Part shown: one piece after another, positions 20,236 to 64,000 of the stretch | Position numbering within the stretch: position 1 is the first letter of the stretch | Layout: each line of letters begins with the position of its first letter | Source: Sphingobacteriia bacterium | GTDB taxonomy: Bacteria > Bacteroidota > Bacteroidia > Bacteroidales > UBA7960 | DNA: 64,000 nucleotides | Reading direction: 5' to 3' | Assembly (NCBI GenBank): GCA_011390785.1 | Contig: JAABRR010000006.1 | Coordinates: 95,493 to 159,492, forward strand | The notes under the pieces: model-generated | Database searches by the model: none | Told to the model about the DNA's origin: nothing | The model's input: the letters and a program-made list of their open reading frames with translations, nothing else | Made by a program: the position numbers and the translations under genes

Positions 20236-20540
20236 AATCATTTTAAATAAAAAACAAATTATTTTAAAAAAAAGAAAACAATACCAAACGTTTAAAAACA
20301 GATATAGATACATATGAATCTATATATGAGAAACTTAAAAAATTTATTAATAAATAAAATGGCAATAAATTTAACGTATTTAAAAATAAATTATGGTAAA
20401 TGTTAAAAATATATGTTTTCCTAAAAACTTAATCAGGTATAATTAATATACACATTATCAAATATTAATCAATATATCTATATGTTTTGAAAAGTAACAA
20501 TAATAAAAGTGACATTATTACACTAAATCAGAATAAAATA

Positions 20541-21996: not shown

Positions 21997-22049
21997 TCGT
22001 CGATAAATTTTCCGATTACGTTCATTCTCTTCATAGTGTTTTTGTTTTG

Positions 22050-40410: not shown

Positions 40411-43400
40411 ATGGCAGCAGCAAAAATCAAGAGATACGTTATTAAAGCGCTTAAAATAGCTGTATGGTTGTTCGCCTCTTTTGTGCTACTATTCTTAATA
40501 ATTTCCATTGCCCTTCAATTCTCTTCTGTTCAAACCTGGCTGATAACCAGGATCACATCGCAGGTTTCCGAAAGAGTAGAAACCCCATTCTCTATTGATA
40601 GGGTAGCCATCCGTTTTCCCAAATCGGTTGGACTTAAGGGAATTTATGCTGAAGATACGCAGGGCGACACACTGCTTTATGCCGGAAGCATTTTTGTTGA
40701 TGTGGGTATGCTGGGATTGTTAAGGAACACTGTCAATGTTAATAGCCTGGAACTTTCTAACGTGGTGGCCAACATGACACGCAACCGGCCCGATACGGTA
40801 TATAACTACCAGTTTCTTATTGATGCCTTTGCCGGAAGTACAGAAAACGATACGATTGTTGAATCTGAGTATGTAGAAAATGACCAAACAAATGATTCAT
40901 CTTCAACGGCATGGCAAATTGTTATTAAAAAAGTAGAATTACAAAAAATCTATTACCGGCTGGCCGACCATTTTTCAGGGATTGATCTCACGGTGGCTCT
41001 TGAAGAATTCACTACAAACCTGGGTGATGCAGATGTGTTGGCAAAAAAATATCACATGGGAAAAACCCTCTTAATCAGGCCGGAAATTACCCTGAAAATG
41101 TCTGAGCCATCGAAACCCTCTGAACCTGATACAGTACCATCGGAATTGCCCGTTTTAGATCTGGCACTCGATCAACTAATCACTGATGATATACAATTTA
41201 TTTATAGCAGTTTCAATGGAACATCTATGAATATTGGAGCAGTATCCCTCTTACTTTCACCAGATAATATACAGCTGCATAAAAACCTTTATGAAGTAAA
41301 TGAGCTGATATCCGATCAATTTTACGCCCACTTCGTTTTCCCCGAAACCACTGCAGACAAATCCCAAACAGTTTCAGATGATAGCGATGAATCTTCTTCG
41401 GGTGAAAAACCTTTTATATTTGATTTTTCAGAAATCATGGATTATACTGTCAAGCTGAATAACCTGGGATTAAACAACTCTGCCTTCAGCATGAAACAAG
41501 GGAATCCAGGGCCTTCATCCCACTTCGATTCCGGCAATATTTCACTTAACAATATCCAGGTTCAGCTTTCAGATATCACCGTTTCGCCCAATGAGCTGAT
41601 CTTGGATATTGATCAATTGGCTATGATCTTTTCAGATGACTTTCAACTCGAAGATTTCCAGGCAAATATTAACTTGGGAGGCAACAGTTTAATTGATATT
41701 CAGAATTTAACCACCAACCAAAGCAAAGTGGCGTTTCGTTTCGAGAGCACAGACAATCTTCTATATTTCTCATCGGATGAAATTGATAACGTGCAATTTG
41801 ATTTATCGATAGCGGAAATCCTAATTCAAAAAGACCTTGCCTGGCTGGTACCTACCATGAACGATTACTACTTTTCATGGCCCAAAACAAAAGGAATCAG
41901 GTTGCAGGGAAAACTTTCCGGGGTTGTTTCAGACCTTGACATCGATAATTTTTCTGCCGAAGCACCCGGTTTTTTTAACACCCAGATAAGTGGCCATTTC
42001 AAAAATATCACCAATCCCGACAGTCTTTGGATAGACATGCACGGCTTAAAAATTGAAGCCATACCCGGTCCATTCTTTGCCAACCTACCCGATTCGCTGG
42101 CACCTGCAGGCCTCCAATTGCCCGAAAGAATTACACTGGAAGCCAGAGCAAAAGGCTCGCGCCAGGATTTTTCACTTACTACCGAAATACTTTCTGATTT
42201 CGGTAATGCCAAACTGGCAGCTGAACTGAAAACGGCAGATGAAAACACCGAAACATTTGCCCTTGATTTTTCAACAGATGGATTCGATGTAGGCAAACTT
42301 ATGGGCCAACAAGAGATGCTTACAGAACCTTTGGAATTCCAATTAACCGCCAATGGTAAGGGCCTCAACCCACAAACCATGGCACTTGAAGCAACCGCCA
42401 CCATTGAAAATCTTCATCTTAACCAATATGCCTATCAACCCCTGAAAATAGAAATGCAATTGGCTGATTCTACAGCATCTGTTAAGAGTCAATACCAGGA
42501 TGAGTATCTTTCTTTCGACCTTGAAAGTTCCTTTGCAGCCTTTAAACAAATACCTGAGTTAATGGCAGACGTTCGTCTCAATTACGGTCAGTTTCAAAAA
42601 TTAGGTTTTGTAGATGATGATTTACTGGTGAAAGTAAGCCTTAACACCCATTTGCTTTTCAACGTTGATGATTTTTTCAGTGGCGATCTGATAATTTCTG
42701 ATGCAGCTTTTGCCCGTGACGGTGAAATATATGAAATCCCTGAACTTACCGTATACTCTGATGCTGATGATGCCAGTTATGGTGTTTCCATTTCTTCACC
42801 GTTTTTAACAGCCAATTACCAGGGAAATATAAGCCCGACAGCACTTCCAAAAGAATTGATTAATCATTTTTCTGACTATTTTGAAATGCCTGGCTTTACT
42901 CCCGATAGCACTGTGGCCGATACAGTTAAGAGGTTTGAATTTACCCTTGCCCTTTTACCCCATGATGTTGTAACCCAAATATTCATGAACCAGATTTCGG
43001 AATACGATACGCTGAACATGAAAGCCTCCTACAACAACCTGGATAGCGAACTTTCCCTTGATATTAACTGGCCGGGCCTTGATTACGGTTCGATGGATTT
43101 AAAGGATTTTACTGCCAAAATTGTAAGCAACAGACAAGCCATGCGCTACCAGGTGAATCTAAGTTCTTTCATGATAAGTGACATTACTTTACATCAATTC
43201 AACGTGCAGGGTGATCTGAAAAATCAGGAACTTACTTATACCATTGCCTTTAGTGATGTTGATGATAATCCACTGTATCGCTTTCCAGGCAGTCTTCAAA
43301 TCGAAGATAGCATTTACCATATTAAGCTGAACCACGATAATCTTTTGCTCAATGGCGAAAAGTGGAAACTTTCAGCCGACAATATGATCAAATTCGGCAA

Positions 43401-45480: not shown

Positions 45481-45486
45481 CTATTG

Positions 45487-47817
45487 ATGATTGCCCGAAA
45501 ACCCATAAGAAAAATCTTATACAGGAAGATTACCTTCCTGATTCCTGCTTTATGGCTATTGATCAGCTCGTGTTCTAACCTGCGCTACCTCGATGATGAC
45601 CAGAAGCTTTATACAGGAAGCGATATAACTATAAAATCTGAAGAAAAAATAGAAAATAAAGGCACTATTACCAGTGAACTTTCAAGCGTATTGCGTCCAA
45701 AACCAAATGATAAATTACTTTCCTGGCGCTACAGATTATGGCTTTATAACGTTACAGGAAATGAACCTAAATTTGGTCCGTTTAAATGGGTAAAAAATAC
45801 CCTTGGCAGGCCACCCGCTTTATGGGAGAATTTCGACGGACAGCGCGGTGCAGAACTGATGGAAAACAGACTCTTTAATATGGGCTTTTTTGATGCGCAG
45901 GTAACTTTTACCCCTAACGAAAAAAAGAAAAAAGCGAGTGCCGGATTTGAAGTTACCCTTTTACCCCCTTATACTATAAGTGAAATTGTACCTATAGAGC
46001 AGCAAAGTGATTTTCACCAGCAAATTAATACCATCTTACAAGATACACCCATGCACCAGGGAGATGCATATAATCTTGATGACTTAAAGTCGGAACGCGA
46101 ACGCATTGCCACTTTGCTAAGAGATAAGGGCTATTTCTATTTTCACCCTGATTATTTAATTTTCCGTGGTGATACGATAGGAACCGACAGAACCATCAGT
46201 CTTCAACTTGCGGTAAAACCTACTATTACACAAAAGGCGCAACATCCCTATAAAATAGGAAATATAAGCATTAATGTAAATCAGAGTGCAACAAACCGGG
46301 AGCAGGAATCAGGTAATGATTCCAATAACGCTGGCAAAAGGAAATTACTGCTGAATAAGAATAATAAAATACGATATTCTACATTGCAAAGAGCGGTTTT
46401 TTTTGAAACAGATTCTCTATACAGTCTTCACCACCATGATCTTACCCTTAACCATTTAATGGGTTTGGGTATTTTTAAATTTGTGAACTTACGCTTTTCT
46501 GAACCCGAAAGTGAAAATCAGCAGTCCTTGGACGTAAATGTTCAACTTACTCCCATGGACAAAAAAAGCATTACAACAGAAATCAGGGGTGTTTCCAAAT
46601 CCAATGATTTTGCAGGCTTTGGACTTAACCTTTCTTTCAGTAACAGAAATTTTTTGGATGGCGCAGAAAACTTCAGCATTAAACTAAATGGTGCCTATGA
46701 ATTTTTATTGGGAGCAAGTAATTATACTTCTATGTCGGAAGCAGGTCTTACTACAGAACTAACCATTCCCAGATTTTTAGCCCCTTTAAGTGATATAATA
46801 GCTGCCCCTACCTTCATACCCAAAACAAGAATTTCGCTAAGTTTCAACATACAAAACAGAAGTGATGCGTTCAACCTGGCCTCCTTTAAAAGTGAATTTG
46901 GATACCTGTGGAATGCCAATTCAATTGTAAGGCACCGATATAGCCCATTGGTATTTAACATATTTGCATTGGGAAATATTTCGCCCAGGTTTCGAGCAAT
47001 CTTTGATCAGGAAACTATTTTAAGAAGGGGCCTGTTTGAGCAGTTTATCATAGGTTCGGAGTACACATTTCTATATAATTCGCAACCATTGAAAAGAGGA
47101 AATGATGCATGGTTTTTTCAATATAATATCGATCTATCGGGTAACCTTCTGTATCTTTTTCTCAACGGTTTAAACCTGGCAGAACCCAACGATGATGGTA
47201 CCTACTCATTATTTGAACAGAATTTTTCACAATACAGCAAAACTGATTTCGATATAAGGTATTACTTTGACATTACTCCGGAACAAAAACTTGTTACAAG
47301 GTTAGTGGCAGGTGTTGGCCTACCCTACGGAAATTCAGGGTCCTTGCCATGGGTAAAACTATTTACCACAGGAGGCAGCAACAGCATAAGGGCATTTCAA
47401 CCCCGCTCGCTGGGTCCCGGTTCTTTTTACCCCGAAGACGAAGATGAATATAGTTTCAATATTTATCAAACCGGCGAAATAAAACTTGAAATGAACCTGG
47501 AATACAGATTTACGATTTCTGGAATTTTCAAAGGGGCAGTTTTTGCCGATGCAGGTAATATCTGGAATTTAAAAGAAAAAGAAAATGCCCCGGGTGGAGC
47601 ATTTAACAAAAATGACTTTATCAACCAAATTGCTTTGGGAACAGGTGCCGGATTAAGATTCGATTTTACTTTCTTCATCCTGCGGCTCGATCTGGCATTT
47701 CCTCTTGCTGTGCCTTACGACAATTCAGAAGGCTATTTTCAGGCACTTGATTTTGGCAGCGGAAAATGGCGTCGGGAAAATTTAATTCTGAACCTTGGTA
47801 TAGGCTACCCGTTCTAA
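45487..47817 (+). CDS. Omp85/BamA-family outer-membrane lipoprotein (TamL-type partner of TamB)
   Basis: The lipobox is PALWLLISSCSNL. The C-terminal barrel ends in the aromatic beta-signal ...LNLGIGYPF. The ORF-track start at 45484 is TTG; the ATG is at 45487, 6 nt after the tamB stop. Confidence 0.75.
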   Translation: MIARKPIRKILYRKITFLIPALWLLISSCSNLRYLDDDQKLYTGSDITIKSEEKIENKGTITSELSSVLRPKPNDKLLSWRYRLWLYNVTGNEPKFGPFKWVKNTLGRPPALWENFDGQRGAELMENRLFNMGFFDAQVTFTPNEKKKKASAGFEVTLLPPYTISEIVPIEQQSDFHQQINTILQDTPMHQGDAYNLDDLKSERERIATLLRDKGYFYFHPDYLIFRGDTIGTDRTISLQLAVKPTITQKAQHPYKIGNISINVNQSATNREQESGNDSNNAGKRKLLLNKNNKIRYSTLQRAVFFETDSLYSLHHHDLTLNHLMGLGIFKFVNLRFSEPESENQQSLDVNVQLTPMDKKSITTEIRGVSKSNDFAGFGLNLSFSNRNFLDGAENFSIKLNGAYEFLLGASNYTSMSEAGLTTELTIPRFLAPLSDIIAAPTFIPKTRISLSFNIQNRSDAFNLASFKSEFGYLWNANSIVRHRYSPLVFNIFALGNISPRFRAIFDQETILRRGLFEQFIIGSEYTFLYNSQPLKRGNDAWFFQYNIDLSGNLLYLFLNGLNLAEPNDDGTYSLFEQNFSQYSKTDFDIRYYFDITPEQKLVTRLVAGVGLPYGNSGSLPWVKLFTTGGSNSIRAFQPRSLGPGSFYPEDEDEYSFNIYQTGEIKLEMNLEYRFTISGIFKGAVFADAGNIWNLKEKENAPGGAFNKNDFINQIALGTGAGLRFDFTFFILRLDLAFPLAVPYDNSEGYFQALDFGSGKWRRENLILNLGIGYPF

Positions 47818-50960: not shown

Positions 50961-52334
<1,374 letters not shown>

Positions 52335-52522: not shown

Positions 52523-55500
52523 ATGCAGGACTCGTCAGATAACAACCATGGAAATATGAATGATAACCTTTCTGATGATATGGTAAACAACATCATCATA
52601 AGCCAGGAAGAGATTCAAAAACTAATTGCTGAAAAACGAGAAAGACTCAAAGAACTGGGAGCTATCAACCAGGCCACCAGAATTTTAAAGCAGGAGCACC
52701 CGATAGACGAGATGTTGGCCGAAATTGTTAAAATATTGCCTCCTGCGTGGCAATACCCAAAAGATACGGTAGCACGTATAAAATATGGCAAAAATTCTTT
52801 TGTAAGCAACGAAAAATTCAAAACCAGTGAGTGGCGTCAGAAAAAATTTTTTCAAACCATCGACGGCACCGAAGGGTTAATTGAGATATATTATCTTTCC
52901 AAACACCCCGATTCTGATGAAGGCCCTTTCCTGGCAGAAGAAAGAGATCTTATAAACAACCTTAGCAGCATCATTTCCGGATATTTAAATACATCAATTG
53001 GAAAAAACCTTTTGCACCAAACCGTAAATATAAAAAAACCTTCACCGTACAAATCCATCCCAGATAAAACATCCCCCCATCAGGAAGCTCTCCATCATTC
53101 TGCCGAGTATCTGAGTAGCGATAAAGAGTCGTTTTTCAGTGATAAGGAGTTGGCTGAATTAAAAGCGGAAGAAGAACACGCGCAGATGAGTCGTCAGCTG
53201 CTTCAGAAATTCCTGGTAAAACACAATTCAGACAAAGATATCTACCACGACCTTATGCAATATAAAGTACGCGAAATATTGCTCGTGGCAAATTTATACG
53301 ATGCCTATATTATTGAGCAGGAAGGCCGCTTTTTTGAGCAGGTAACCGGCGAATACTATCAGCTGAGTCTTTCATCTGCACCCCGGATTACAGGTGTTTC
53401 AACACCTGAAGAAGCTTTGGAAAAACTGCAATCTAAGCATTTCGACCTGGTAATTGTAATGATGGGGGTAGATAAATATATGCCCATTCAATTGAGCAGG
53501 GTTATTAAAAAGATCTACCATAATATTCCCATTTTTCTGTTGCTTAATAACAATAGCGACATAGGCCTGTTTGAAGATGGCAGCAAGAATATTGGCCCTA
53601 TCGATAAGGTTTTTGTTTGGAATGGCGATTCGAATGTTTTCCTTGCCATGGTTAAATACATTGAAGACCGCATGAATGTTGAAAACGATATCAACATTGG
53701 TATGGTGAGGGTAATTTTGCTGGTAGAAGATTCGGCACGCTACTACTCAAGATACCTGCCCATTTTATATTCTATTGTTATTGAGCAAACCCAGCGGCTT
53801 ATTGAAGAAGTAAATACCGACGAATTGTATAAGCTTTTAAAAATGCGCGTTCGGCCAAAAATCCTACTGGCAAGCAATTATAAGGAAGCCCTTACATTGT
53901 TTGATAAATACCGCGATAATCTTTTATGCCTGATTTCTGATGTAAAGTTTGAAAAAAACGGGAAATTAGACGATGCGGCCGGTCTAAGCCTGGTGGGCTA
54001 CGCGAAAGACCAGATGCCCGAATTACCCGTAGTATTACAATCTTCAGACCCCGAAAACGCTCACAAAGCCTATCTGCTTAAATCAACCTTTATCAATAAA
54101 AATTCGGAAACGCTCAAACAGGATCTCCGGAGCTTTATCAATTATTACCTGGGATTTGGGAATTTCGTTTACCGCGATGAGGAAGGCAGGAAAGAAATTG
54201 CGGTAGCCCGGTCGATGAAAGAATTCCAGGGTCATCTGAAATACATTCCTGAAAAATCTATTATTTATCATGCGCGCAAAAACCATTTCTCGCACTGGCT
54301 CATGGCAAGAGGAGAAATTCAGATAGCCAAAAAGATTAAACCCCTAAAGGTAGAAGACTTTGTAAATCCAGGCTCAGTCAGGGAATATATGATTAGTATT
54401 ATCGAAACATGCATCCGTGACAGGCAAAAAGGTAAAGTGGTCAACTTTGAAGAATCTGCCTTACTCGACGAATCAAATGTAGTAAGCATGGCCCCTGGTT
54501 CACTGGGCGGAAAAGGCCGTGGACTGGCCTTTATCTGTATGCTGATCAATAATTTTTCGTTCAATGAAATTCTAACTGACATAAGAATCAGATCGCCCCG
54601 AACATCTGTTATCGGCACAGAAGAATTTGAGCAATTTATGCGCAATAATGATCTCTATGAAAAAATAAAGAAAGAGACCAATTTTAAAAATGTTCAGAAA
54701 ATATTTACTCAGGCAAGCCTTTCATTTAGCCTGATTAAAAGACTAAAAACCTATCTCAGCGTAATTAAAAATCCACTGGCAATACGCTCATCAAGCCTTT
54801 TTGAAGATTCGTTGATGCAACCTTTTGCCGGAATTTTCGATACTTTTCTCCTTCCCAACAACCACCACGACCTCAATGAACGCCTTAACCAAACCATGGA
54901 CGCTATAAAACTGGTTTTTGCTTCCATTTTTTCACCCACCGCGCAAACTTATTTTAAGGCAGTCAATTATAAAATTGAAGAAGAGAAAATGGCTGTTATA
55001 ATACAAGAAGTAGTAGGCAATCAGAACGATAGCTATTTCTATCCACATATCAGCGGTGTGGCACAATCTTATAATTTTTATCCTTTTTCTTACATGAAGC
55101 CCGACGAAGGATTTGCTGTGGCAGCAGTTGGACTGGGAAAATATGTTGTAGAAGGGGAAAAAACATATCGTTTCTCACCGGTACATCCTCAACTCGAAAT
55201 CTACACGCCCAAAGACTTGTTTAAAAATTCGCAGCTGCATTACTACGCCATCAATATGGGCCGCGAAAGTATCAACCTGCTCGATGGCGAAGATGCCGGC
55301 CTGATAAAACTCGATATCGATATGGCCGAAAAACATGGTACACTGAAACATTGTGCTTCTGTTTACGATATTTCAAACGAAAGCACTGTGCCGGGATTAA
55401 CACAGCCAGGTCCACGGGTGATAAACTTTGCCAATATTCTGAAATACGATTACATACCCATGGCAAAAACCCTGGAGGTAATACTTGATATTGTCTCAGA

Positions 55501-56194
55501 AGCAATGGGCTCGCCCATCGAAATAGAATTTGCCATAGACCTTAACAAAGACAAAGATGGCAGGGCATCATTTTACCTGCTGCAAATAAAACCACTTATA
55601 AAAAACATTATTGATAATGATATCAGCCTTGACAAGATTGACAATAATCGTCTCCTGCTTTATTCCGAAAATGGCATGGGAAACGGAAAAATAACCGACA
55701 TATACGATGTAATCTACATTGACATGGATCGGTTTAACAAGTTAAAGACCGAAAAAATGCGCGACGAGATAGAAAATCTAAACCAGGAAATGATCAGGCA
55801 GAAAAGGAAATATATTCTAATTGGCCCGGGAAGATGGGGCACGCGCGATCGGTTTATAGGCATACCAGTCAACTGGTCTAACATTTCCAATGCAAAAATT
55901 ATTGTGGAAGTGAGCATGGAAGATTTTCCCCTTGATGCTTCGCTGGGTTCCCATTTCTTCCATAATGTAATATCAATGAATGTGGGCTACTTCTCCGTAA
56001 AACACAATGCTCTTATCGACTATATAAACTGGGATGTGCTTAAAAATTCAACCCTTATTACACAAACACAGTATTTCAGGCATGTTCGGTTCACCAACCC
56101 ACTCGAAATTATTATGGATGGGAAAAAGAGAGCATCGCTGGTCTATTTTAACGAAGAAAACGAAGTAAGTCAATCGAATCCGGAAGTCAAATAG
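52523..56194 (+). CDS. Sensor-module + pseudo-receiver + receiver (REC) + PPDK_N-type ATP-grasp protein with a short His-bearing C-terminal module; no PEP/pyruvate TIM-barrel (paralogue 1)
   Basis: 1223-aa ORF. aa ~30-155 is a GAF-like sensory module (GLIEIYYLSKHPDSDEGPFLAEERDLINNLSS). aa ~248-385 is receiver-like but lacks the acidic pocket (ILLVANLYD, DLVIVMMGV). aa ~395-530 is a canonical REC (ILLVEDS, LISD473V, VVLQSS, FINK). aa ~656-1025 is a PEP-synthase/PPDK N-terminal nucleotide-binding domain (GSLGGKGRGLAF, AIRSSSLFEDS, VIIQEVVG, FYLLQIKPL). The C-terminal ~190 aa carry ILIGPGRWGTRDRFIGIPV and GSH1144FFHN. Confidence 0.7.
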   Translation: MQDSSDNNHGNMNDNLSDDMVNNIIISQEEIQKLIAEKRERLKELGAINQATRILKQEHPIDEMLAEIVKILPPAWQYPKDTVARIKYGKNSFVSNEKFKTSEWRQKKFFQTIDGTEGLIEIYYLSKHPDSDEGPFLAEERDLINNLSSIISGYLNTSIGKNLLHQTVNIKKPSPYKSIPDKTSPHQEALHHSAEYLSSDKESFFSDKELAELKAEEEHAQMSRQLLQKFLVKHNSDKDIYHDLMQYKVREILLVANLYDAYIIEQEGRFFEQVTGEYYQLSLSSAPRITGVSTPEEALEKLQSKHFDLVIVMMGVDKYMPIQLSRVIKKIYHNIPIFLLLNNNSDIGLFEDGSKNIGPIDKVFVWNGDSNVFLAMVKYIEDRMNVENDINIGMVRVILLVEDSARYYSRYLPILYSIVIEQTQRLIEEVNTDELYKLLKMRVRPKILLASNYKEALTLFDKYRDNLLCLISDVKFEKNGKLDDAAGLSLVGYAKDQMPELPVVLQSSDPENAHKAYLLKSTFINKNSETLKQDLRSFINYYLGFGNFVYRDEEGRKEIAVARSMKEFQGHLKYIPEKSIIYHARKNHFSHWLMARGEIQIAKKIKPLKVEDFVNPGSVREYMISIIETCIRDRQKGKVVNFEESALLDESNVVSMAPGSLGGKGRGLAFICMLINNFSFNEILTDIRIRSPRTSVIGTEEFEQFMRNNDLYEKIKKETNFKNVQKIFTQASLSFSLIKRLKTYLSVIKNPLAIRSSSLFEDSLMQPFAGIFDTFLLPNNHHDLNERLNQTMDAIKLVFASIFSPTAQTYFKAVNYKIEEEKMAVIIQEVVGNQNDSYFYPHISGVAQSYNFYPFSYMKPDEGFAVAAVGLGKYVVEGEKTYRFSPVHPQLEIYTPKDLFKNSQLHYYAINMGRESINLLDGEDAGLIKLDIDMAEKHGTLKHCASVYDISNESTVPGLTQPGPRVINFANILKYDYIPMAKTLEVILDIVSEAMGSPIEIEFAIDLNKDKDGRASFYLLQIKPLIKNIIDNDISLDKIDNNRLLLYSENGMGNGKITDIYDVIYIDMDRFNKLKTEKMRDEIENLNQEMIRQKRKYILIGPGRWGTRDRFIGIPVNWSNISNAKIIVEVSMEDFPLDASLGSHFFHNVISMNVGYFSVKHNALIDYINWDVLKNSTLITQTQYFRHVRFTNPLEIIMDGKKRASLVYFNEENEVSQSNPEVK

Positions 56195-56219
56195 TAAATA
56201 CAGATAACCCTTAAATAAC

Positions 56220-59200
56220 ATGGAAGATAACACCATACATATTGACGAATCGAGATCCAAATACAAATACAACGAGCTATTTTCAACAGACAGGCACGAG
56301 TTCAGCGAGATATCATATCAGGACCTAATGCAGGAACGTATCATTAACGTACTGCTGATCTGCTCTAACTACGATGCTTTTATGCTGGAAGAAGACGGCC
56401 GTATTAACGAAAGAATTTTCCTGGAATACACATCTAAGAACCTTCGCTACCCGCCCCAATTCACCCATGCCTACTCATCTGAAGTAGCTTTTGACCTGCT
56501 GGAAAAGAAAAAATTCGATTTGGTTATTACCATGCTTAATGTGGGTAAGATCGATGCCTTTGAAATGGCAAAAAAAGTAAAACGGCGCTTTACCAATATT
56601 CCCATTGTAGTGCTGACGCACTTTTCGCGCGAAGTAACCCTGAAACTAGCCAACGAAGACCTTAGCTCTATTGATTACGTTTTCTGCTGGCTGGGAAATC
56701 CTGGCTTATTGCTTGCTATCATAAAGCTTCTTGAAGATAAAATGAATGCCGATTTTGATGTGGATAAAAAGGGAGTGCAGGCTATTTTACTTGTTGAAGA
56801 CTCTATCCGATATTACTCATCCTATCTGCCCACCATTTACCAGGCTATTTTTGAGCAAACCAACGAGTTGATGACAGAAGGGCTTAATGAACACCGCAAA
56901 ACCTTACGTATGCGGGCGCGTCCCAAGATCCTGCTGGCCAAAACATTTAATGATGCGGTGGCACTCTATAAAAAATATAAACATAATTTACTGGGAATCA
57001 TTTCAGACGTAAGCTATTACCGGGATGGCCATAAAGACAAAGAGGCCGGAATAAAGCTGGCCAGGCTTGTTAGGGATGAAGGCAATAAAATACCCGTATT
57101 GTTGCAATCATCGCAGGAATGGGACCCTACATTTATGCAGGAACTGGGGGTAAGTTTCATAAACAAATACTCTAAAACGCTATTGGTAGAGCTGAAGCAT
57201 TATATAAAAGAAAATTATGGCTTCGGCGATTTTGTGTTCCGCGATCCGCTAAGCGATATGGAGATAGACCGTGCCAACAACCTGCACTCTCTACAGGTAA
57301 AAATTTCGAAGATAGAGCCCAAATCACTGATGTACCATGTTAACAACAATCACTTTTCAAGATGGCTTAAAGCAAGGGCCCTGTTTTCTATTGCCGAAGT
57401 ATTTTCTCAAAAAAGTACCGACGATTTTAACAACATTGAAGAAATTCGTAGTTACCTTATCGATACCATTGCCAACTACCGTAAAACCAAGGGTCGCGGC
57501 ATTATTGCCAGTCATATTGATGAATATGCTATTTTTACCCGCCTGGGAGATGGCCAGCTGGGCGGCAAAGCACGGGGCCTGGCTTTTATTGATTCATTTA
57601 TCAATAAAAACAAATTGATGTTTCACTGGGAAGATGTAATGGTTACCATACCCCGAACTGTGGTTCTTACTACTGATTTGTTTGATGAATTTATGGAAGA
57701 GAATGAACTCTACAGCTTTGCCCTTTCAGATGTTACAGATGAGCAGGTTATAGAACAGTTTAGCAATGCCGCTACCCCTACCCGACTGCGAAAACATGTG
57801 GAAGAAATATGCGAAGCCATCAAATCTCCTTTGGCAGTGCGCTCGTCAAGCCTTCTTGAAGACAGCCACTACCAGCCATTTGCAGGTGTTTACTCCACCT
57901 TTATGATTCCCAACAATCACTTCGATTTTCGCATCAGGCATTTTCAACTCGAACAGGCCATTAAGTGCGTTTATGCATCCGTTTTCTTCAAAGAAAGTAA
58001 AGCCTACATTGCTGCAACTTCCAATGTAATAGACGAAGAAAAAATGGGAGTGGTGATACAGGAAGTTTCTGGCCGAAGTTATGGAAACCGCTTTTATCCG
58101 GCCATTTCTGGTGTGGCACGATCTATAAATTTTTATCCCATAGAACCCGAGAAATATGAAGATGGAATAGCCAACATTGCCTTTGGCCTGGGAAAAACCA
58201 TTGTGGAAGGAGGAATATCCATGCGGTTTTGCCCCAAATACCCGCAAAAAGTACTTCAACTCTCTGTTCCGGAGTTGGCCCTTACAGATAGCCAGAAAGA
58301 ATTTTACGCCCTCGATCTCGACCCTGAAAAATTCCACTCATCAACTGATGATACCGTAAACCTTCACAAGCTGCGTATTAAACATGCAGAAAATGATAAA
58401 GCCCTGAAATTTGTGGCCTCTACGTTCGATTATCAGGATCAGATCATCAGAGATGGCATGTATGAAGGAGGTAAAAAAATTATAACCTTTGCCAATATCT
58501 TAAAATACAATGCCTTTCCCCTGGCAGATATCCTGCAGAAAATACTCAAAACCGGCCAGCAGGAAATGAACAACCAGGTAGAAATCGAATTTTCTGTAAA
58601 CCTTGATACACCCGATAATCAACCACAGATATTCCATTTTCTTCAAATAAGGCCCGTTGTGGAAACACAGGAAAAAAACCTTGTTAATCTTGATGATCAT
58701 AACAACGAAGAAACCATCGTTTTTAGCCAAAATGCCCTGGGAAACGGAATGATAGATAATATTTACGATATTGTTTATGTTAAACCCAATACTTTTGACC
58801 CGGCACATACCAAATCCATTGCCCTTACCATTGATAAGCTCAATTCAAAATTTACAGAAAATAAGAAAAACTATATCCTTATCGGGCCGGGGAGGTGGGG
58901 TTCAAGCGACCCGTGGTTGGGAATTCCTGTTAAATGGTCGCAAATATCTGCCGCTCAACTTATTATTGAAGCTGGTTTAAAAAATTTCCAGATAGACCCC
59001 AGCCAGGGAACCCACTTTTTTCAAAACCTGACATCATTCAACGTAGGATATTTTACCATCAACCCATTTAATAAAGATGGATATTACGATGTAGATTATC
59101 TTGCCGGTCAACCCGCAATTTTTGAAGATGATTTTGTAAAACATGTCAGATTTCAGCACCCTGCTATCATAAAAATTGATGGAAGGAAGAAAAAAGGAAT

Positions 59201-59252
59201 TATCTATAAACCTGTTGATTTACAGAATGATAGAAGCGATCAAAACGAATAA
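56220..59252 (+). CDS. Pseudo-receiver + receiver (REC) + PPDK_N-type ATP-grasp protein with a short His-bearing C-terminal module (paralogue 2, no N-terminal sensor)
   Basis: 1010-aa ORF starting 25 nt after paralogue 1. It is collinear with paralogue 1 from its pseudo-REC onward (roughly 35-45 percent identity by eye). Matching segments: LLICSNYD / DLVITMLNV (pseudo-REC); ILLVEDS, IISD263V, VLLQSS, FINK (REC); GQLGGKARGLAF, AVRSSSLLEDS, VVIQEVSG, FHFLQIRPV (ATP-grasp); ILIGPGRWGSSDPWLGIPV and QGTH932FFQN (C-terminal module). Confidence 0.7.
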   Translation: MEDNTIHIDESRSKYKYNELFSTDRHEFSEISYQDLMQERIINVLLICSNYDAFMLEEDGRINERIFLEYTSKNLRYPPQFTHAYSSEVAFDLLEKKKFDLVITMLNVGKIDAFEMAKKVKRRFTNIPIVVLTHFSREVTLKLANEDLSSIDYVFCWLGNPGLLLAIIKLLEDKMNADFDVDKKGVQAILLVEDSIRYYSSYLPTIYQAIFEQTNELMTEGLNEHRKTLRMRARPKILLAKTFNDAVALYKKYKHNLLGIISDVSYYRDGHKDKEAGIKLARLVRDEGNKIPVLLQSSQEWDPTFMQELGVSFINKYSKTLLVELKHYIKENYGFGDFVFRDPLSDMEIDRANNLHSLQVKISKIEPKSLMYHVNNNHFSRWLKARALFSIAEVFSQKSTDDFNNIEEIRSYLIDTIANYRKTKGRGIIASHIDEYAIFTRLGDGQLGGKARGLAFIDSFINKNKLMFHWEDVMVTIPRTVVLTTDLFDEFMEENELYSFALSDVTDEQVIEQFSNAATPTRLRKHVEEICEAIKSPLAVRSSSLLEDSHYQPFAGVYSTFMIPNNHFDFRIRHFQLEQAIKCVYASVFFKESKAYIAATSNVIDEEKMGVVIQEVSGRSYGNRFYPAISGVARSINFYPIEPEKYEDGIANIAFGLGKTIVEGGISMRFCPKYPQKVLQLSVPELALTDSQKEFYALDLDPEKFHSSTDDTVNLHKLRIKHAENDKALKFVASTFDYQDQIIRDGMYEGGKKIITFANILKYNAFPLADILQKILKTGQQEMNNQVEIEFSVNLDTPDNQPQIFHFLQIRPVVETQEKNLVNLDDHNNEETIVFSQNALGNGMIDNIYDIVYVKPNTFDPAHTKSIALTIDKLNSKFTENKKNYILIGPGRWGSSDPWLGIPVKWSQISAAQLIIEAGLKNFQIDPSQGTHFFQNLTSFNVGYFTINPFNKDGYYDVDYLAGQPAIFEDDFVKHVRFQHPAIIKIDGRKKKGIIYKPVDLQNDRSDQNE

Positions 59253-59392: not shown

Positions 59393-60730
59393 ATGAATTT
59401 GGATAAGATAATGGCCGATCTGGAAAAGAAAAATCCTGGTCAACCTGAATTCCTTCAGGCAGTAAAAGAAGTTCTCGAAACCATTGAAGATGTGGTAAAA
59501 GAAAACCCACGCTACGAGGCTGCAAACATTATTGAAAGAATCATTGAACCCGACAGGGTTATTAAGTTTAAAGTACAATGGATGGACGACAAAGGCCAGG
59601 TGCAGGTAAACCGTGGCTATCGTGTTCAGTTTAACAACGCTATTGGCCCTTACAAGGGTGGACTAAGGTTTCACCCCAGTGTAACAGAGGGTGGCCTTAA
59701 GTTTTTGGGCTTTGAACAGATTTTCAAAAACAGCCTTACAACACTGCCCATGGGCGGCGCAAAAGGAGGAAGCGATTTCGACCCCAAAGGAAAATCGAAT
59801 GCCGAGATCATGCGTTTCTGCCAGGCTTTTATGTCTGAACTATACAAATACATAGGCCCCGATAAAGATATTCCTGCAGGCGATATTGGTGTAGGAGGAC
59901 GCGAAATTGGCTATCTGTTTGGTATGTACAAAAAACTTGTTGGCGAGCACCATGGTGTGCTTACCGGAAAAGGTCGCGGTTGGGGCGGTAGCCTTATCCG
60001 CCCGGAAGCTACAGGATTTGGTAATGTTTTCTTTGCCGAAGAAATGCTTAAAACCCGCGGTGAAACCCTGGAAGGAAAAATCATTGCCGTTTCAGGTTTC
60101 GGTAATGTTTCATGGGGTTCAATCATTAAAGCCACACAACTGGGTGCAAAGGTTGTGACCATCAGCGGACCCGATGGTTATGTTTATGATCCTGATGGAA
60201 TTTCAGGAGAGAAAATAGACTACCTGCTCGAATTACGCGCATCAAACCAGGATATCGTAAAACCTTATACTTTTGAATTCCCCACAGCACAATTCTTTGA
60301 AGGAAAACGCCCATGGGAAGTGAAATGCGATGTAGCTCTTCCATGTGCCATTCAAAATGAGCTGAACGCAGAAGATGCACAAAAACTTGTTGACAATGGT
60401 GTAATATGTATTTCTGAAGGTGCCAATATGCCTTGTACCCCCGAAGCCATGGAAATTTTCCTGAATAATAAAGTGCTCTATGCCCCGGGAAAAGCATCTA
60501 ATGCAGGCGGTGTTGCTACTTCAGGACTGGAGCAAACACAAAATGCGATGAAACTTAACTGGATCGCCCCCGAAGTAGAAGAAAAACTTCACCAGATCAT
60601 GGTCAATATTCATGATGCTTGTGTTAAATACGGAAAAGATGGAGATGGCTATGTTAATTACGTAAAAGGAGCCAACGTAGCTGGCTTTATCAAAGTAGCC
60701 GATGCTATGATAGAGCAGGGAGTTGTATAA
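59393..60730 (+). CDS. gdhA: Hexameric glutamate dehydrogenase, second paralogue with NAD-type (Clostridium symbiosum-like, gdhB-like) fingerprint
   Basis: 445-aa ORF with GGLRFHP and [16 protein letters not shown]. The fingerprint VSGFGNVSWGSIIK...VTISGPDGYVYDPDG resembles the NAD-specific C. symbiosum GDH pattern (GFGNVAWG...SGPDGYIYDPEG). Identity to the first paralogue is roughly 55-65 percent by eye. Confidence 0.9.
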   Translation: MNLDKIMADLEKKNPGQPEFLQAVKEVLETIEDVVKENPRYEAANIIERIIEPDRVIKFKVQWMDDKGQVQVNRGYRVQFNNAIGPYKGGLRFHPSVTEGGLKFLGFEQIFKNSLTTLPMGGAKGGSDFDPKGKSNAEIMRFCQAFMSELYKYIGPDKDIPAGDIGVGGREIGYLFGMYKKLVGEHHGVLTGKGRGWGGSLIRPEATGFGNVFFAEEMLKTRGETLEGKIIAVSGFGNVSWGSIIKATQLGAKVVTISGPDGYVYDPDGISGEKIDYLLELRASNQDIVKPYTFEFPTAQFFEGKRPWEVKCDVALPCAIQNELNAEDAQKLVDNGVICISEGANMPCTPEAMEIFLNNKVLYAPGKASNAGGVATSGLEQTQNAMKLNWIAPEVEEKLHQIMVNIHDACVKYGKDGDGYVNYVKGANVAGFIKVADAMIEQGVV

Positions 60731-61255: not shown

Positions 61256-64000
61256 ATGAACTACCACTCTTCTGAACCCATCAATTACCGCCCCCGCCGC
61301 GATGTAATCCGTTACATTAACATGAAACTGGCTTCTATGGGGCAACCTATTTTTGAAGGAAATATTCAGGAACAGTCAGATGGAATGACCGAACAGGAAT
61401 TTGTAAACCTTGCCGAGAGCCTGCTGGAGAACTATAAGGAAAAAATGCGCCTTCTTTCTGAAGATGTTATTAATCCGGTTGACCGACGTATTCAAAATTT
61501 CCTGGATAACTACCTTAAGGATCTGAATTTTGAAAAATCTATCCGCCTGCCTTTCGACTCCTTTGTATTGGATAAGCCTGGTATTGGACGCGAAGTAAGC
61601 CTGCCACCCGACAGCGATCGCTACAGTACTTCACACTTTGAATCGTTCCGCATCCAGCAGGGTATTTTGCATAATCCTGCCAGCGACCGACGCACAACCA
61701 AAGGTTCTTTCCATATTGTTGATGGTGGCCTGCCCGTACCCGACGATAAAAAATGTGTGCCAAAAATTACCTTTGCCAATTTGTTGCACGAGGCTTTTAA
61801 CCCACCCGACGATTTCATGGTGCTCCCCTTTACCGCTACCATGAAAAAACAGGCAAAAGTATTCGTTTCACTTCTTCTAAGGCCCACTGTAAGCCCCGAA
61901 ATCCCGGGACTATCAGAGAAGAAAAGCATTGAGGTGCGCTTTTTTGCTCCGGGAGCTTTTGTGAGTAACCTTGATTTTGTAGAAACCATTTTTGGTAATG
62001 CCGGCGATCCCTACCTCTATAAAAACGATGCTGCCCTCGATCCGGAGCATTGGACAGGCCATACCGGTACCATCATTCTGGCACCCCATCTTACCAAAAT
62101 ACGTAAAAAAGATGTTGGACTTCCGCACTGGGACCAGGCCACCGAACGCCAACGACACGATGAAATGTGCTGGAAAGATGAATCAGAACTCTATAATGAT
62201 GGCGTTGCTTTTAAACTAACATGCCGCGATGATTCAGGTGTTGTAGTTACCCTGATTGCCGATAACTATTTCGGTTACAGTAAAAAAGAGATTAAAACAC
62301 AGCTGTCATATGCAGCAAACCTCTATGGAAATATTGAAGAAGAACATGCAGGTGGTGCCCTGGCCTTCTCACGCAGAAATATGGGGAGCCATTTTTCTGC
62401 AGAAAGTCTGGCCAAACGTTTCCCCAACGCCTATACATTTGAAGAGATAAAAGAGCACTATGCTGATATGATGGATATTTATCCGGAAAATTACGGGATA
62501 GATAAAAACCACAAAGAAGTAGTTTACATACCTGAAAATGCTGAGATAGATCTCTACAAAAGCAGGATTTACTGGAATTACAAAGGCAAAGAAAGTCAGA
62601 TCAAATTACTTAAGAATCACAACTACGTTTTGCCCTGTGGGTTTAAGGTGCATATGGAAAAGCATCCGTTTACCCACGATTGGCGACTGGTGGTAACTCA
62701 GGCCGAAGGCAGCTTTCTGCACAAACCAAGCACCGTTTCAGGTGGAGGTAAATCAGAAATATCAAAATCACTGCTCAACGCCATCATTTATGGGCAATTC
62801 TATATTGATGATATTGAAAAAGATTTTGCCCTTGCCCAGGAATTGATCGATTTTGATTTTAGCAGCCGGTGGATCGATCCTTCCACCCAAAAAGAAGATA
62901 AGAGGAAACTTCTGGATCCGGACCGTACCCTTGGTTCAGTAATAAAATTACTTACCCCCTACCGTGGATACAGTGTTTCCTTCAACCGCTATTTAAAAGG
63001 TATTCCTGATTATGTAAAAGCACTGGTACTGCTGGTGAAAAGAATCAGCCTTATTGATGGTAATTATAACAAAGACTGGCGCGAATACTTTACCGTTGAC
63101 AAGGTTAACGGTCGTAAAGGGCACGCATTACTGTTTGATAACCGAAAGTTAAGCATGTCATACCTGCGGGTTGGTTTTGGCGAGAATGATTCATGGAATG
63201 TGTATTCACTCCGTCCTGATTTTATTGCTGCCGCCAAAGTTCAGATGGAAGATGATATTTCGGCAACCCTTACCGTACCAGCAAATCAGGTAAGCTACCT
63301 GCGGCCAGGATCATATAGAGAAAGCGTTAAATTTGCACAGAATTGTGAATATCACTTTTTCCAGCGGCCCGATGAAGCCATTAACCGTGGCTACGATAAG
63401 CAAGCTGAATTTGATCTTTCTCAGATGAACACCTTTACCACCAACTACCAGCCCCTAACGGCAAATGATGGTAAGGAGATCATTGAAGAAGCCATTGAAT
63501 TTGACAAATATACCCCTCCTATCAAGGAGTTGATTATTAAAGGAGCCGATAATAAGAGAGGTGCCTATTTTATATCACCATCGCATCCGCGCAGACTTGA
63601 TGATGGCTCCATTTCCGAAAATCCAAGGTATTTGCAGGCGCGCCCCGAATTCAGCAATCCAGTAGATAAATACCTGGCTCATACAGGAATTCGGTTTGCC
63701 CGTAAAATCCCCATGGATAAACCTACCCTTTTCCCGGTTAATGATGTATTGCCTGGCCGCAGAAACAATCGGTCAAACAAAGAGAAGGGCATCCGGCCAT
63801 TAAGTGTTTATGCACCCATTCATTACCAGGATTTGCCAGAGTTGTTCATGGATTTTGTGTGCAGTCTTACCGGAAAATCCCCTTCCACTACAGGTGCAGG
63901 ATCAGAAGGGGCTCTCACCAAAGGGCCTTTCAACATGCTTATCCCAACCACCGATCTCAACAACGCTCTTATAGCTTATATTCTTACAGGTTATAGTGCC
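61256..64000 (+). CDS. Large PEPCK-fold protein, candidate PPi-dependent phosphoenolpyruvate carboxykinase; C-terminus runs off the right window edge (absent from ORF track)
   Basis: Manual translation from the ATG at 61256 gives 915 codons with no stop up to 64000 (MNYHSSEPINYRPRRDVIRYINMKLASMGQPIF...). PEPCK-like motifs occur in canonical order: NYFGYSKKEIK (cf. YGGEMKKG of ATP-PEPCK), EEEHAGGA, and the P-loop-like STVSGGGKSEISKS (62741-62755). A size above 915 aa fits only the giant PPi-type PEPCK family. The CDS itself is secure; the product call is tentative. Confidence 0.5.
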   Translation, partial: MNYHSSEPINYRPRRDVIRYINMKLASMGQPIFEGNIQEQSDGMTEQEFVNLAESLLENYKEKMRLLSEDVINPVDRRIQNFLDNYLKDLNFEKSIRLPFDSFVLDKPGIGREVSLPPDSDRYSTSHFESFRIQQGILHNPASDRRTTKGSFHIVDGGLPVPDDKKCVPKITFANLLHEAFNPPDDFMVLPFTATMKKQAKVFVSLLLRPTVSPEIPGLSEKKSIEVRFFAPGAFVSNLDFVETIFGNAGDPYLYKNDAALDPEHWTGHTGTIILAPHLTKIRKKDVGLPHWDQATERQRHDEMCWKDESELYNDGVAFKLTCRDDSGVVVTLIADNYFGYSKKEIKTQLSYAANLYGNIEEEHAGGALAFSRRNMGSHFSAESLAKRFPNAYTFEEIKEHYADMMDIYPENYGIDKNHKEVVYIPENAEIDLYKSRIYWNYKGKESQIKLLKNHNYVLPCGFKVHMEKHPFTHDWRLVVTQAEGSFLHKPSTVSGGGKSEISKSLLNAIIYGQFYIDDIEKDFALAQELIDFDFSSRWIDPSTQKEDKRKLLDPDRTLGSVIKLLTPYRGYSVSFNRYLKGIPDYVKALVLLVKRISLIDGNYNKDWREYFTVDKVNGRKGHALLFDNRKLSMSYLRVGFGENDSWNVYSLRPDFIAAAKVQMEDDISATLTVPANQVSYLRPGSYRESVKFAQNCEYHFFQRPDEAINRGYDKQAEFDLSQMNTFTTNYQPLTANDGKEIIEEAIEFDKYTPPIKELIIKGADNKRGAYFISPSHPRRLDDGSISENPRYLQARPEFSNPVDKYLAHTGIRFARKIPMDKPTLFPVNDVLPGRRNNRSNKEKGIRPLSVYAPIHYQDLPELFMDFVCSLTGKSPSTTGAGSEGALTKGPFNMLIPTTDLNNALIAYILTGYSA

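Follow-up and report, generated by a model that had tools for sequence, protein, structure and literature searches.

What do two adjacent genes encode whose products begin like response regulators, continue like dikinases and stop ~190 aa past the ATP-grasp domain, with a glutamate dehydrogenase (GDH) as the next gene? The question is posed by P1 and P2, two proteins encoded in a window (the whole stretch of DNA analysed, 64,000 nucleotides of a Sphingobacteriia bacterium contig) and belonging to a family some of whose members carry the database labels 'phosphoenolpyruvate synthase' or 'pyruvate, phosphate dikinase'. P2 begins downstream of P1 after a gap of 25 nt, and at 38% identity across 979 aa the two are paralogues. 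Their relatives are numerous, with more than 8000 homologues at E values near 0, far above chance, and the family is present in at least 598 species genomes, with Gillisia limnaea and Parabacteroides among its cultured carriers; a search of the literature found no paper on it. Its smallest conserved unit is the ATP-grasp domain plus the C-terminal module, together ~580 aa, and such units usually occur in pairs, whether in tandem, split or fused. Very divergent fusions without receivers also belong to the family.

Both open reading frames were recovered where a preliminary description of this DNA had placed them, and all the motifs, residue numbers and codon positions quoted there, including the codons of the phosphoacceptor Asp and of the module His, were reproduced (Table 1). 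P1 comprises an N-terminal sensor-like domain, a pseudo-receiver (REC-A), a canonical receiver (REC-B), a linker, a PPDK_N ATP-grasp domain and a C-terminal His module, and P2 follows the same order from the pseudo-receiver onwards. Neither protein contains a PEP/pyruvate TIM barrel or matches the Pfam families PEP-utilizers and PEP-utilizers_C. Pfam, AF2 and Foldseek bear out the layout originally proposed, from pseudo-receiver to His-bearing C-terminal module without TIM barrel; what found no support was the identification of that module as a degenerate swivel-His domain of the PEP-utilizers family.

Table 1. Features of the P1/P2 locus, in window positions
Feature	Coordinates	Strand	Basis
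GDH, NADP-specific type, divergent upstream of P1	50961..52301	-	Pfam ELFV_dehydrog; NCBIfam PRK09414, 761 bits (cut-off 536); conserved linkage
P1 gene, 1223 aa	52523..56194	+	ORF; Pfam; 100% identical database protein P0121; mapping onto P2 model via alignment A3
P1 N-terminal sensor-like domain, aa ~26-165, LKELGAINQ ... EGPFLAEERDLI	52598..53017	+	Recurrence in P1-type proteins
P1 pseudo-receiver (REC-A)	53264..53701	+	Weak Response_reg match at 288-340; acidic pair, Asp and Lys replaced
P1 canonical receiver (REC-B); phosphoacceptor D473 (GAT, 53939-53941)	53702..54151	+	Motifs; conservation mapping
P1 conserved linker domain, FGNFVYRD ... NHFSHWL	54152..54472	+	Weak DUF5752 similarity
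P1 PPDK_N ATP-grasp; K664, R755, T774, Q828, E1000, E1002, Q1021	54473..55603	+	Pfam, 138 bits; residue mapping
P1 C-terminal His module; invariant H1144 (CAT, 55952-55954)	55634..56152	+	Conservation; mapping
P2 gene, 1010 aa	56220..59252	+	ORF; Pfam; AF2 full-length model, pLDDT 88.8, pTM 0.82
P2 pseudo-receiver (REC-A)	56337..56771	+	(beta-alpha)5 fold; acidic pocket, Asp and Lys all missing (Pfam, AF2, Foldseek, conservation)
P2 canonical receiver (REC-B); D263 (GAC, 57006-57008)	56772..57218	+	AF2 secondary structure; hhalign to CheY; conservation; Foldseek
P2 linker domain, two strands plus helical bundle	57219..57527	+	Weak DUF5752 similarity; AF2
P2 PPDK_N ATP-grasp; K450, R541, T560, Q614, E788, E790, Q809	57528..58664	+	Pfam, 129 bits; RPH profile alignment; conservation; Foldseek
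P2 C-terminal His module; H932 (CAC, 59013-59015)	58695..59213	+	Conservation; AF2; PDB fold search
Second GDH paralogue, 140 nt 3' of P2, same strand	59393..60730	+	Pfam; NCBIfam PRK14030, 809 bits (cut-off 743); conserved linkage

The additional N-terminal region of P1, ~235 aa, includes a sensor-like domain that matches no Pfam family even at E<=10 and yet recurs in P1-type proteins, in three tandem copies in one protein (P0313), within giant fusions and, at another locus (L085), in a PAS-GerE regulator that adjoins GDH. The preliminary description mentioned neither this region nor the flanking GDH genes. The first receiver-like domain reaches only 24.5 and 28.5 bits against PF00072, under the cut-off of 30.2, and its reported lack of an acidic pocket, phospho-Asp and Lys holds across the family alignment: S/A/C and S/N stand in place of the acidic pair, M/T/F in that of the Asp, and the position of the Lys is taken by W157 (61 of 62 sequences). 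The second does not reach the Pfam threshold for PF00072 either, and its profile finds nothing but receivers in the PDB, albeit weakly (E 0.1-0.6). Its canonical catalytic residues were nevertheless confirmed: in the AF2 model of P2, D263 ends beta3, S297/S298 follow beta4 and K316 follows beta5; hhalign pairs IISDV with VISDW of CheY, and D263 with D57 (probability 74%); and E193, D194, D263, S297 and K316 are each kept in at least 89% of members (55-62 of 62-65). As a tandem, the receivers of the P2 model resemble PleD and other tandem-REC structures (Foldseek, E 5e-8 to 7e-7, ~400 columns). No conserved histidine kinase gene was found among the neighbour clusters of family loci. A hybrid histidine kinase adjoins one divergent family member.

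Behind the linker comes the ATP-grasp domain. PF01326, whose cut-off is 27 bits, scores 138.1 bits in P1 (profile positions 3-309 of 328) and 128.8 bits in P2 (positions 3-325), and the top Foldseek match of the P2 model is RPH (5hv2; E 2.8e-10, probability 1.00, 429 columns), so that the PPDK_N assignment made earlier stands on both score and fold. Profile alignment (E 6e-10) pairs K450, R541 and T560 of P2 with K22, R117 and T136 of RPH, which are essential by mutagenesis (PMC4844700). Among 75 aligned sequences these residues are found in 74, 75 and 68 respectively, so that they, like Q809, lie within 68-75 of 75; of the acidic and Gln residues at the Mg/adenine site, Q614, E788 and E790 are invariant. 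From these conserved residues the ATP-grasp of P1 and P2 is predicted to be catalytically intact.

What follows the ATP-grasp domain is a module of ~175-180 aa that, modelled in isolation from P2, is an autonomous and confidently predicted domain (AF2 pLDDT 91.6, pTM 0.88). Its His, which the model of P2 places at the N-terminus of a helix, is invariant in all 138 diverse modules compared, and R892, E917, S928, G930 and N936 are likewise invariant or almost so across 75-138 diverse sequences, as are G894 and G901 where compared. This module represents a previously undescribed family. The preliminary description had seen in it a pattern collinear with the swivel domain of PEP-utilising enzymes, and this is correct for how its secondary-structure elements succeed one another and for where the His sits; no significant relationship of sequence or fold was recovered. 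PF00391 matched none of 38 diverse modules even at E<=10, a PDB search with a module profile, again at E<=10, brought up no chain of PPDK, PpsA, EI or RPH, and hhalign against genuine swivel domains returned a probability of 0.8%, its sole local match being the terminal hairpin. The phosphorylation-site signature, which we take to read G-[GA]-x-[TN]-x-H-[STA]-[STAV]-[LIVM](2)-[STAV]-[RG] and which was validated on PDB sequences, occurs in 0 of 138 modules in strict or loose form, as against four (strict) and five (loose) of five genuine domains. Foldseek with the isolated module gave no significant PDB match (best E 0.047, TM <=0.34), and no swivel domain of PPDK, PpsA, EI or RPH stood within its top 50.

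Might the module nonetheless be a highly diverged but true PEP-utilizers swivel, passing from pyrophosphoryl-His to phospho-His and swinging to an acceptor site as in PPDK and RPH? Several likenesses speak for such descent. The AF2 model repeats the order of the PPDK central domain (hairpin, helix, strand, loop, strand, His-loop, helix, strand and a terminal 'xDGxxxG' hairpin, the very element that hhalign matched), the module follows the ATP-grasp immediately, just as the swivel domain of PPDK and PpsA does, and the Foldseek alignment of full-length P2 extends over an unusually long 651 columns of maize PPDK, against those 429 of RPH, where the swivel domain stands in a non-collinear position. 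The weak top matches of the isolated module, a PA domain, Cpn60 and CPS, are presumably other 'swivelling beta/beta/alpha' folds (SCOP c.8). Against descent stand the failed searches; furthermore, phmmer by itself is enough to link the swivels of PPDK, PpsA, RPH, EI and pyruvate kinase to one another (1e-5 to 1e-17), so that this module would fall far outside the known range, and it is ~70 aa longer with a motif set of its own (GPGRWGS..D..LGIPV.W, IxE, SQG.HFF.N). We consider true descent fairly unlikely, if a serious contender. The module cannot be shown to belong to the PEP-utilizers swivel family; given the negative searches and the residual likenesses, homology is not demonstrated, while a role as phospho-His carrier would be plausible from the invariance and position of the His and by functional analogy.

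The module could instead be no carrier at all, and rather bind or act on the acceptor, as a counterpart of the rifampin-binding domain of RPH or the TIM barrel of PPDK; the ATP-grasp would then act directly on a bound substrate, by phosphorylation or through an acyl-phosphate, and the His, Arg, Glu and Ser would be catalytic or binding residues. The many invariant polar residues besides the His (R892, D897, E917, S928, N936) are more reminiscent of an active or binding site than of a single-His swivel, a relationship to carrier domains is undetectable, the ~580-aa core offers no second candidate for an acceptor domain, and the high pTM of the whole protein (0.82) suggests a fixed arrangement over free swivelling. 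Pulling the other way, pLDDT falls to 72-83 where ATP-grasp and module join and to 75-77 in the His loop, a pattern that would fit mobility, and residues typical of beta-phosphate attack, which bind the ATP phosphate, are conserved. Moreover, to our knowledge every characterised PPDK_N enzyme, GWD included, uses a phospho-His carrier, as do PPDK, PpsA, RPH, HpeHI and VadK. On balance an acceptor domain seems rather improbable.

Two further readings fare much worse. That P1 and P2 are dead scaffolds, binding nucleotide only and serving as signalling adaptors, would suit the pseudo-receiver and the absence of any known activity, but is very improbable with the ATP-phosphate and Mg-binding positions and the polar residues of the module strictly conserved across phyla and in both paralogues. 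That they are PEP synthases or PPDKs of the ordinary kind, with a partner protein providing in trans the swivel and/or PEP/pyruvate domain that they lack, as the labels of some relatives and the existence of two-component dikinases such as HpeHI might suggest, is largely refuted and close to negligible: no PEP-utilizers_C or canonical swivel signature was found in the window or by six-frame search of 1.46 Mb at 91 family loci, the conserved neighbour clusters include no such domain, NCBIfam PEP synthase models match the ATP-grasp only (37-56 bits against cut-offs of 598-1063), and the conserved C-terminal module and receivers would be left without a role. The earlier contention that these are not PEP synthases is upheld, with the TIM barrel absent and no nearby partner found.

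The genes around the family point to a metabolic context. GDH lies within 10 kb of family genes in 34 of 79 species loci, and within 400 nt in ~27; a 2-oxoacid:ferredoxin oxidoreductase is immediately upstream in ~12 of the 79, and one or the other is present at 43. Even the divergent receiver-less fusions lie directly downstream of a GDH, of a different type, in all three cases with upstream sequence. The linkage to GDH is missing in about half of the loci, including those of Bacteroides intestinalis and B. timonensis. The P1/P2 family is strongly linked to GDH and 2-oxoacid:ferredoxin oxidoreductase genes, a linkage that does not imply the chemical nature of the link; given GDH adjacency in many bacteria, the family may act as a regulator, so far uncharacterised, of the glutamate/2-oxoglutarate node.

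Taking architecture and neighbourhood together, we give an even chance to the reading that P1 and P2 form a pair of VadK/RPH-like phosphotransferases, gated by their receivers and belonging to the PPDK_N (dikinase-type ATP-grasp) superfamily, not PEP synthases, and that they act on the GDH/2-oxoglutarate node. In such a mechanism, an unlinked histidine kinase would phosphorylate D473 and D263, and inhibition would be relieved or imposed through the linker domain; in P1, a ligand on the N-terminal sensor-like domain may be a second input. The ATP-grasp would then take phosphate off ATP; if PPDK, RPH and VadK are a guide, this would be the beta-phosphate, leaving AMP and Pi. The module would receive the phosphate on its invariant His or relay it through that residue, and we infer that it acts as a phospho-His carrier or catalytic His domain. 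The final acceptor would lie in the glutamate/2-oxoglutarate node: most likely GDH or a partner enzyme would undergo regulatory modification, in the way VadK works on the methylcitrate cycle; a small metabolite would be a less likely acceptor.

A bolder and distinctly doubtful version of this proposal would make the family a dedicated covalent-modification system for GDH, and perhaps for 2-oxoglutarate:ferredoxin oxidoreductase, in which the dikinase ATP-grasp loads a novel phospho-His carrier that phosphorylates GDH on a two-component signal in Bacteroidota, with a fused nucleotidyltransferase as accessory domain in other phyla. Reversible in vivo inactivation of Bacteroides GDH was described in the older literature, and such a system, if real, would provide its molecular basis; it would be to GDH what GlnE is to glutamine synthetase, PDRP to PPDK and VadK to the methylcitrate cycle.

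Parts of P1 and P2 have counterparts in several known systems. Like PleD-type regulators, they place two consecutive (beta-alpha)5 receivers, one canonical and one degenerate, in control of a C-terminal enzyme domain, although the order is reversed (pseudo first, canonical second) and the output is an ATP-grasp enzyme rather than GGDEF. With PPDK and PpsA they share a PPDK_N ATP-grasp followed immediately by a His-bearing domain, from which they differ in lacking the TIM barrel, a PF00391 match and the phosphorylation-site signature, and in their extra N-terminal receivers. The two-component small-molecule dikinase HpeHI (PMC12167813) likewise works as a pair, of split ATP-grasp and His/acceptor components; HpeH has canonical swivel and RIF-BD-like domains and its substrates are phenolic ketones, whereas each member of the P1/P2 pair has its own ATP-grasp and module. 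RPH-Lm (PDB 5hv2/5fbs; PMC4844700), the nearest solved structure and sequence for the ATP-grasp, is also a dikinase without TIM barrel, with a C-terminal His domain and the same conserved Lys, Arg and Thr (K22, R117, T136), but it is an antibiotic-resistance enzyme without receivers, in which a large rifampin-binding domain separates the ATP-grasp from a canonical PF00391 swivel. The best functional analogy is VadK (Rv1127c) of M. tuberculosis, a regulatory histidine (di)kinase derived from a truncated PPDK, which autophosphorylates on a His and controls metabolic enzymes encoded beside it (PMC13400623). It has no receivers, is not one of a paralogous pair, carries a canonical PPDK central (swivel) domain with His422 where P1 and P2 have a seemingly unrelated module of ~180 aa, and is linked to the methylcitrate cycle rather than to GDH and 2-oxoacid:ferredoxin oxidoreductase. 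Like P1 and P2, it consists of PPDK_N and then a His-bearing domain, with neither a pyruvate/PEP domain nor a partner restoring canonical activity, and its gene adjoins the metabolic enzymes under its control, a genomic logic analogous to that of the P1/P2 locus. By that analogy VadK is the closest functional precedent for P1 and P2, as a dikinase-derived regulator of a metabolic node.

Two neighbouring genes of the window, P1 and P2, are co-directional, separated by 25 nt and encoding paralogues that are 38% identical over 979 aa. In a search of the family's relatives, thousands of homologues were recovered with E near 0, and the architecture of the pair is therefore not a chance feature. Pfam recognises the PPDK_N ATP-grasp domain strongly in both proteins (cut-off 27 bits; scores 138 and 129), places sub-threshold Response_reg matches solely in the first receiver-like region, and matches nothing in the second receiver or the last ~190 aa, while NCBIfam models for PEP synthase, PigC and rifampin phosphotransferase (RPH) cover the ATP-grasp only, at scores far under their cut-offs. 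An AF2 model of full-length P2, computed from 75 diverse sequences (pLDDT 88.8, pTM 0.82), begins with a pair of adjoining (beta-alpha)5 units, followed by the linker, then the ATP-grasp and finally a C-terminal domain that stands apart. Open reading frames, Pfam and, for P2, AF2 bear out the architecture observed in the preliminary description, whose motifs, residue numbers and codon coordinates were all reproduced.

Coordinates of P1, P2 and their elements, of other features in the window, and of features in loci (L numbers) carrying database homologues (P numbers)
Feature	Coordinates	Strand	Length	Remarks
P1	52523-56194		1223 aa	ORF
P1 N-terminal sensor-like domain	52598-53017			motif LKEL...WQYP...GPFLxEExxLL
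P1 D473 codon	53939-53941			second receiver
P1 linker	54152-54472			between receiver and ATP-grasp
P1 H1144 codon	55952-55954			C-terminal module
P2	56220-59252		1010 aa	ORF
P2 D263 codon	57006-57008			second receiver
P2 linker	57219-57527			between receiver and ATP-grasp
P2 H932 codon	59013-59015			C-terminal module
GDH, NADP-specific type	50961-52301	-		flanks P1/P2 pair
Second GDH paralogue, PRK14030 type	59393-60730	+		flanks P1/P2 pair
PPi-dependent PEP carboxykinase	61256-64000	+	at least 914 aa	ORF, continues past window end
GC dip	20001-22000			GC 0.297 vs about 0.40 elsewhere
NrtR-like Nudix/winged-helix regulator	20541-21275	-		in GC dip
CitMHS-family transporter	37947-40292			two TrkA_C domains (Pfam)
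TamB-like protein	40411-45480		1689 aa	Pfam
Omp85/POTRA protein	45484-47817			Pfam
Giant form P0243	L085 8001-12920			
Giant form P0288	L087 8001-12965			
Giant form P0248	L089			
Giant form P0319 and neighbour	L086 597-5524			
P1 N-terminal domain, three tandem copies in P0313	L090 407-1684			
P1 N-terminal domain in PAS-GerE regulator	L085 5697-6056			encoded beside GDH
Hybrid histidine kinase and SelO-family protein	L087 2347-6058			adjoin GDH/giant-fusion pair

Both N-terminal units of the P2 model resemble known receivers, with tandem-receiver proteins including PleD matched by Foldseek at E 5e-8 to 2e-5. The second of them has D263 at the end of beta3, S297/S298 after beta4 and K316 after beta5; its IISDV aligns with VISDW of CheY at D57 (hhalign). 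This receiver is present in 62-65 members, of which 55-62 keep E193, D194, D263, S297 and K316. The first unit carries S/A/C and S/N for the acidic pair, M/T/F at the Asp position and a conserved Trp at the Lys position. Lacking these residues beside a canonical second unit, it justifies, on residue conservation and AF2 fold alike, the earlier description of a pseudo-receiver followed by a receiver. The linker, two strands and a helical bundle in the P2 model, is weakly similar to DUF5752 (20-22 bits, short of the required 23); its conserved FGDFxFR ... NHFSxWL also occurs in family members of ~720-750 aa without receivers. P1 carries an extra N-terminal region (core aa ~26-165), absent from the preliminary description, which matches no Pfam family even at E<=10 and recurs in P1-type proteins and inside giant fusions.

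The ATP-grasp domain looks catalytically competent, judged from its residues. The family profile aligns with the ATP-grasp of RPH (E 6e-10), and RPH 5hv2 is the best Foldseek match of the P2 model (E 2.8e-10). In RPH, K22, R117 and T136 contact the ATP phosphates and are needed for function (PMC4844700); their equivalents are K664/R755/T774 in P1 and K450/R541/T560 in P2, the latter positions being kept in 68-75 of 75 sequences, over which Q614, E788 and E790 of P2 are invariant. ATP-citrate lyase (3mwd_B), which appears at rank 44 for the full-length P2 model, was set aside as probably a superposition of tandem alpha/beta receivers on SCS-alpha-like domains.

The C-terminal module of ~180 aa is a distinct, undescribed domain family. 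An exhaustive search with P2 residues 815-1010 against 1.84 billion representatives returned 1793 cluster representatives at E<=1e-3, and every listed match of sufficient length to reveal its surroundings has the module closing a PPDK_N unit at the C-terminus. The proteins measure ~580 aa (without receivers), ~720 aa or ~1000 aa, and those of 1500-1650 aa contain two copies. Across 138 diverse modules R892, G894, G901, S928, G930 and H932 are invariant, so that the proposed conservation of the His holds, and D897, E917 and N936 nearly so. The isolated module gives a confident model (pLDDT 91.6, pTM 0.88) in which a helix starts at the His. As a conserved domain it is new, and among solved structures it has no relative. 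Weak longin/VAMP7 profile matches (E 0.013-0.03) had no structural support and were treated as chance. A Pol-beta-fold nucleotidyltransferase (NTase) identity, suggested by Pfam NTP_transf_2, Polbeta and MTPAP matches in P0288, was rejected because these fall in an extra domain, a genuine NTase, that follows the second copy of the module; Foldseek found no NTase match in the PDB for the isolated module model.

Could the module nevertheless be a true, much diverged homologue of the phosphohistidine swivel domain (PF00391), as the preliminary description had proposed in calling it a degenerate swivel-His domain? The order of secondary-structure elements is that of a swivel domain, both follow directly on an ATP-grasp, and the module's weak top structural matches are the PA domain, Cpn60 and CPS, which we take to be other 'swivelling beta/beta/alpha' folds. 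The full-length P2 model also aligns with maize PPDK over 651 Foldseek columns against 429 for RPH, whose swivel domain is not collinear; read from column counts, this difference is suggestive. Yet sequence, profile, signature and fold searches were all negative, and no test connects the module to the PEP-utilizers family. None of 38 modules matched PF00391 or any other Pfam family at E<=10, and the module profile found no PPDK, PpsA, EI or RPH chain among PDB sequences at the same threshold. Against genuine swivel sequences drawn from PDB alignments (1kbl, 2ols, 8a8e, 9dae, 5fbs), hhalign gave a probability of 0.8%, its sole pairing being that of two terminal hairpins, IKIDGRKK with ISLDGSTG; the phosphorylation-site signature was present in 0 of 138 modules as opposed to 4-5 of 5 true swivel domains. 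Foldseek found nothing significant for the isolated module among 350,542 PDB chains (best E 0.047, TM <=0.34) and no swivel domain in its top 50 matches. Unlike the module, the swivel domains of PPDK, PpsA, RPH, EI and pyruvate kinase detect one another by plain phmmer, and we regard a swivel ancestry as unlikely. The module may act as a phospho-His carrier. Of the earlier interpretation, the tandem-receiver layout, the intact ATP-grasp and the lack of a PEP/pyruvate domain are supported, and the swivel identity is not.

Genomic context ties the family to glutamate dehydrogenase (GDH). The two-GDH arrangement that flanks P1 and P2 is repeated in relatives. The module pattern gave at least 598 matches, and 79 of the loci, from species-representative genomes, were compared: 34 have GDH no more than 10 kb away, as do 19 of the 38 that span 18 kb or more, and in about 27 the distance is within 400 nt; we estimate chance proximity at about 1%, assuming one to three gdh copies per 3-5 Mb genome. 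In about 12 of the 79, genes for a two-subunit 2-oxoacid:ferredoxin oxidoreductase immediately precede the family gene in the same orientation (L008, L013, L021, L025, L029, L032, L038, L052, L057, L075 and others), and one or other enzyme, GDH or oxidoreductase, is present in 43. Its alpha (POR+POR_N, ~614 aa) and beta (TPP_enzyme_C, ~340 aa) subunits, 30-400 nt from the family gene, are called by class only, NCBIfam scores being under equivalog cut-offs. Very divergent, receiver-less giant fusions lie immediately downstream of GDH in all three cases with available upstream sequence; as this GDH is of a different type, only 31-35% identical to those of the window, the link is not just inherited Bacteroidales synteny. 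Flanking sequence of the ~580-aa forms at L001 and L084 is too short to inform on context.

Units of ATP-grasp and module occur in pairs, whether as tandem P1 and P2 (20 of 79 loci), as a 580-aa unit gene overlapping a 1062-aa unit+NTase gene, or as both units in one protein of 1500-1650 aa. The giant forms, either fused (then directly downstream of GDH) or split into two overlapping genes, run [ATP-grasp+module]-[P1N-like domain]-helical region-[ATP-grasp+module]-[genuine Pol-beta nucleotidyltransferase domain], the NTase being an accessory domain in place of receivers. At the P0288 locus the adjoining histidine kinase is a hybrid (HisKA+HATPase_c+REC) and its companion a SelO-family protein, SelO being an AMPylating pseudokinase. 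Near family genes in the loci examined, conservation of a histidine kinase was not seen.

Taken together, we would give roughly an even chance to a mechanism in which phosphorylation of the receiver gates the ATP-grasp, the N-terminal domain of P1 senses a ligand as additional input, and phosphate would pass via or onto the invariant module His to an acceptor within the GDH/2-oxoglutarate node. Direct transfer of phosphate, with the module serving as acceptor or catalytic domain, seems unlikely. Supply of the missing domain by a partner protein is very improbable, since the 1.46 Mb of family loci contain neither PEP-utilizers_C nor the signature of a canonical swivel domain. Genomic coupling to two GDH paralogues and the oxidoreductase suggests post-translational or metabolic control at the carbon-nitrogen junction of Bacteroidota, in which control of ammonia assimilation is poorly understood; reversible GDH inactivation was reportedly described in B. 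fragilis in the 1980s.

Elsewhere in the window, the carboxykinase reading frame just downstream of the second GDH has no Pfam family and matches AiPEPCK 6k31 at E 3e-261 and 8e1u at 2.5e-256; the sharp GC dip otherwise holds short ORFs only, and the TamB-like and Omp85/POTRA genes form a TAM-type outer-membrane assembly pair.

The family is large and uncharacterised as enzymes, and its interest lies in its breadth, its new domain and its GDH linkage. It occurs in at least 598 species-representative genomes, including gut Bacteroides, Parabacteroides and marine Flavobacteriia; literature searches found no paper on it, and the database labels 'PEP synthase', 'PPDK' and 'CheY-like' given to its members are wrong. 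Dikinase relatives without a TIM barrel are known: RPH ends in a swivel domain and also has one that binds rifampin (PMC4844700), HpeHI consists of two components (PMC12167813), and VadK/Rv1127c of M. tuberculosis is a PPDK cut down to its ATP-binding and His domains (PMC13400623). VadK, which autophosphorylates on His422, adjoins methylcitrate-cycle genes and interacts with their enzymes (PMC13400623), appears by analogy the closest in logic to P1/P2. P1 and P2 share an ATP-grasp and a missing TIM barrel with these relatives, and with VadK the layout of a 'regulator beside its metabolic target'. They differ in their tandem receiver input, their paralogous pairing and, chiefly, in a His domain at the C-terminus that is distinct from the canonical swivel domain. 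With them, the few dikinase-derived enzymes that lack a PEP/pyruvate domain (RPH, HpeHI, VadK) would gain one under receiver control.
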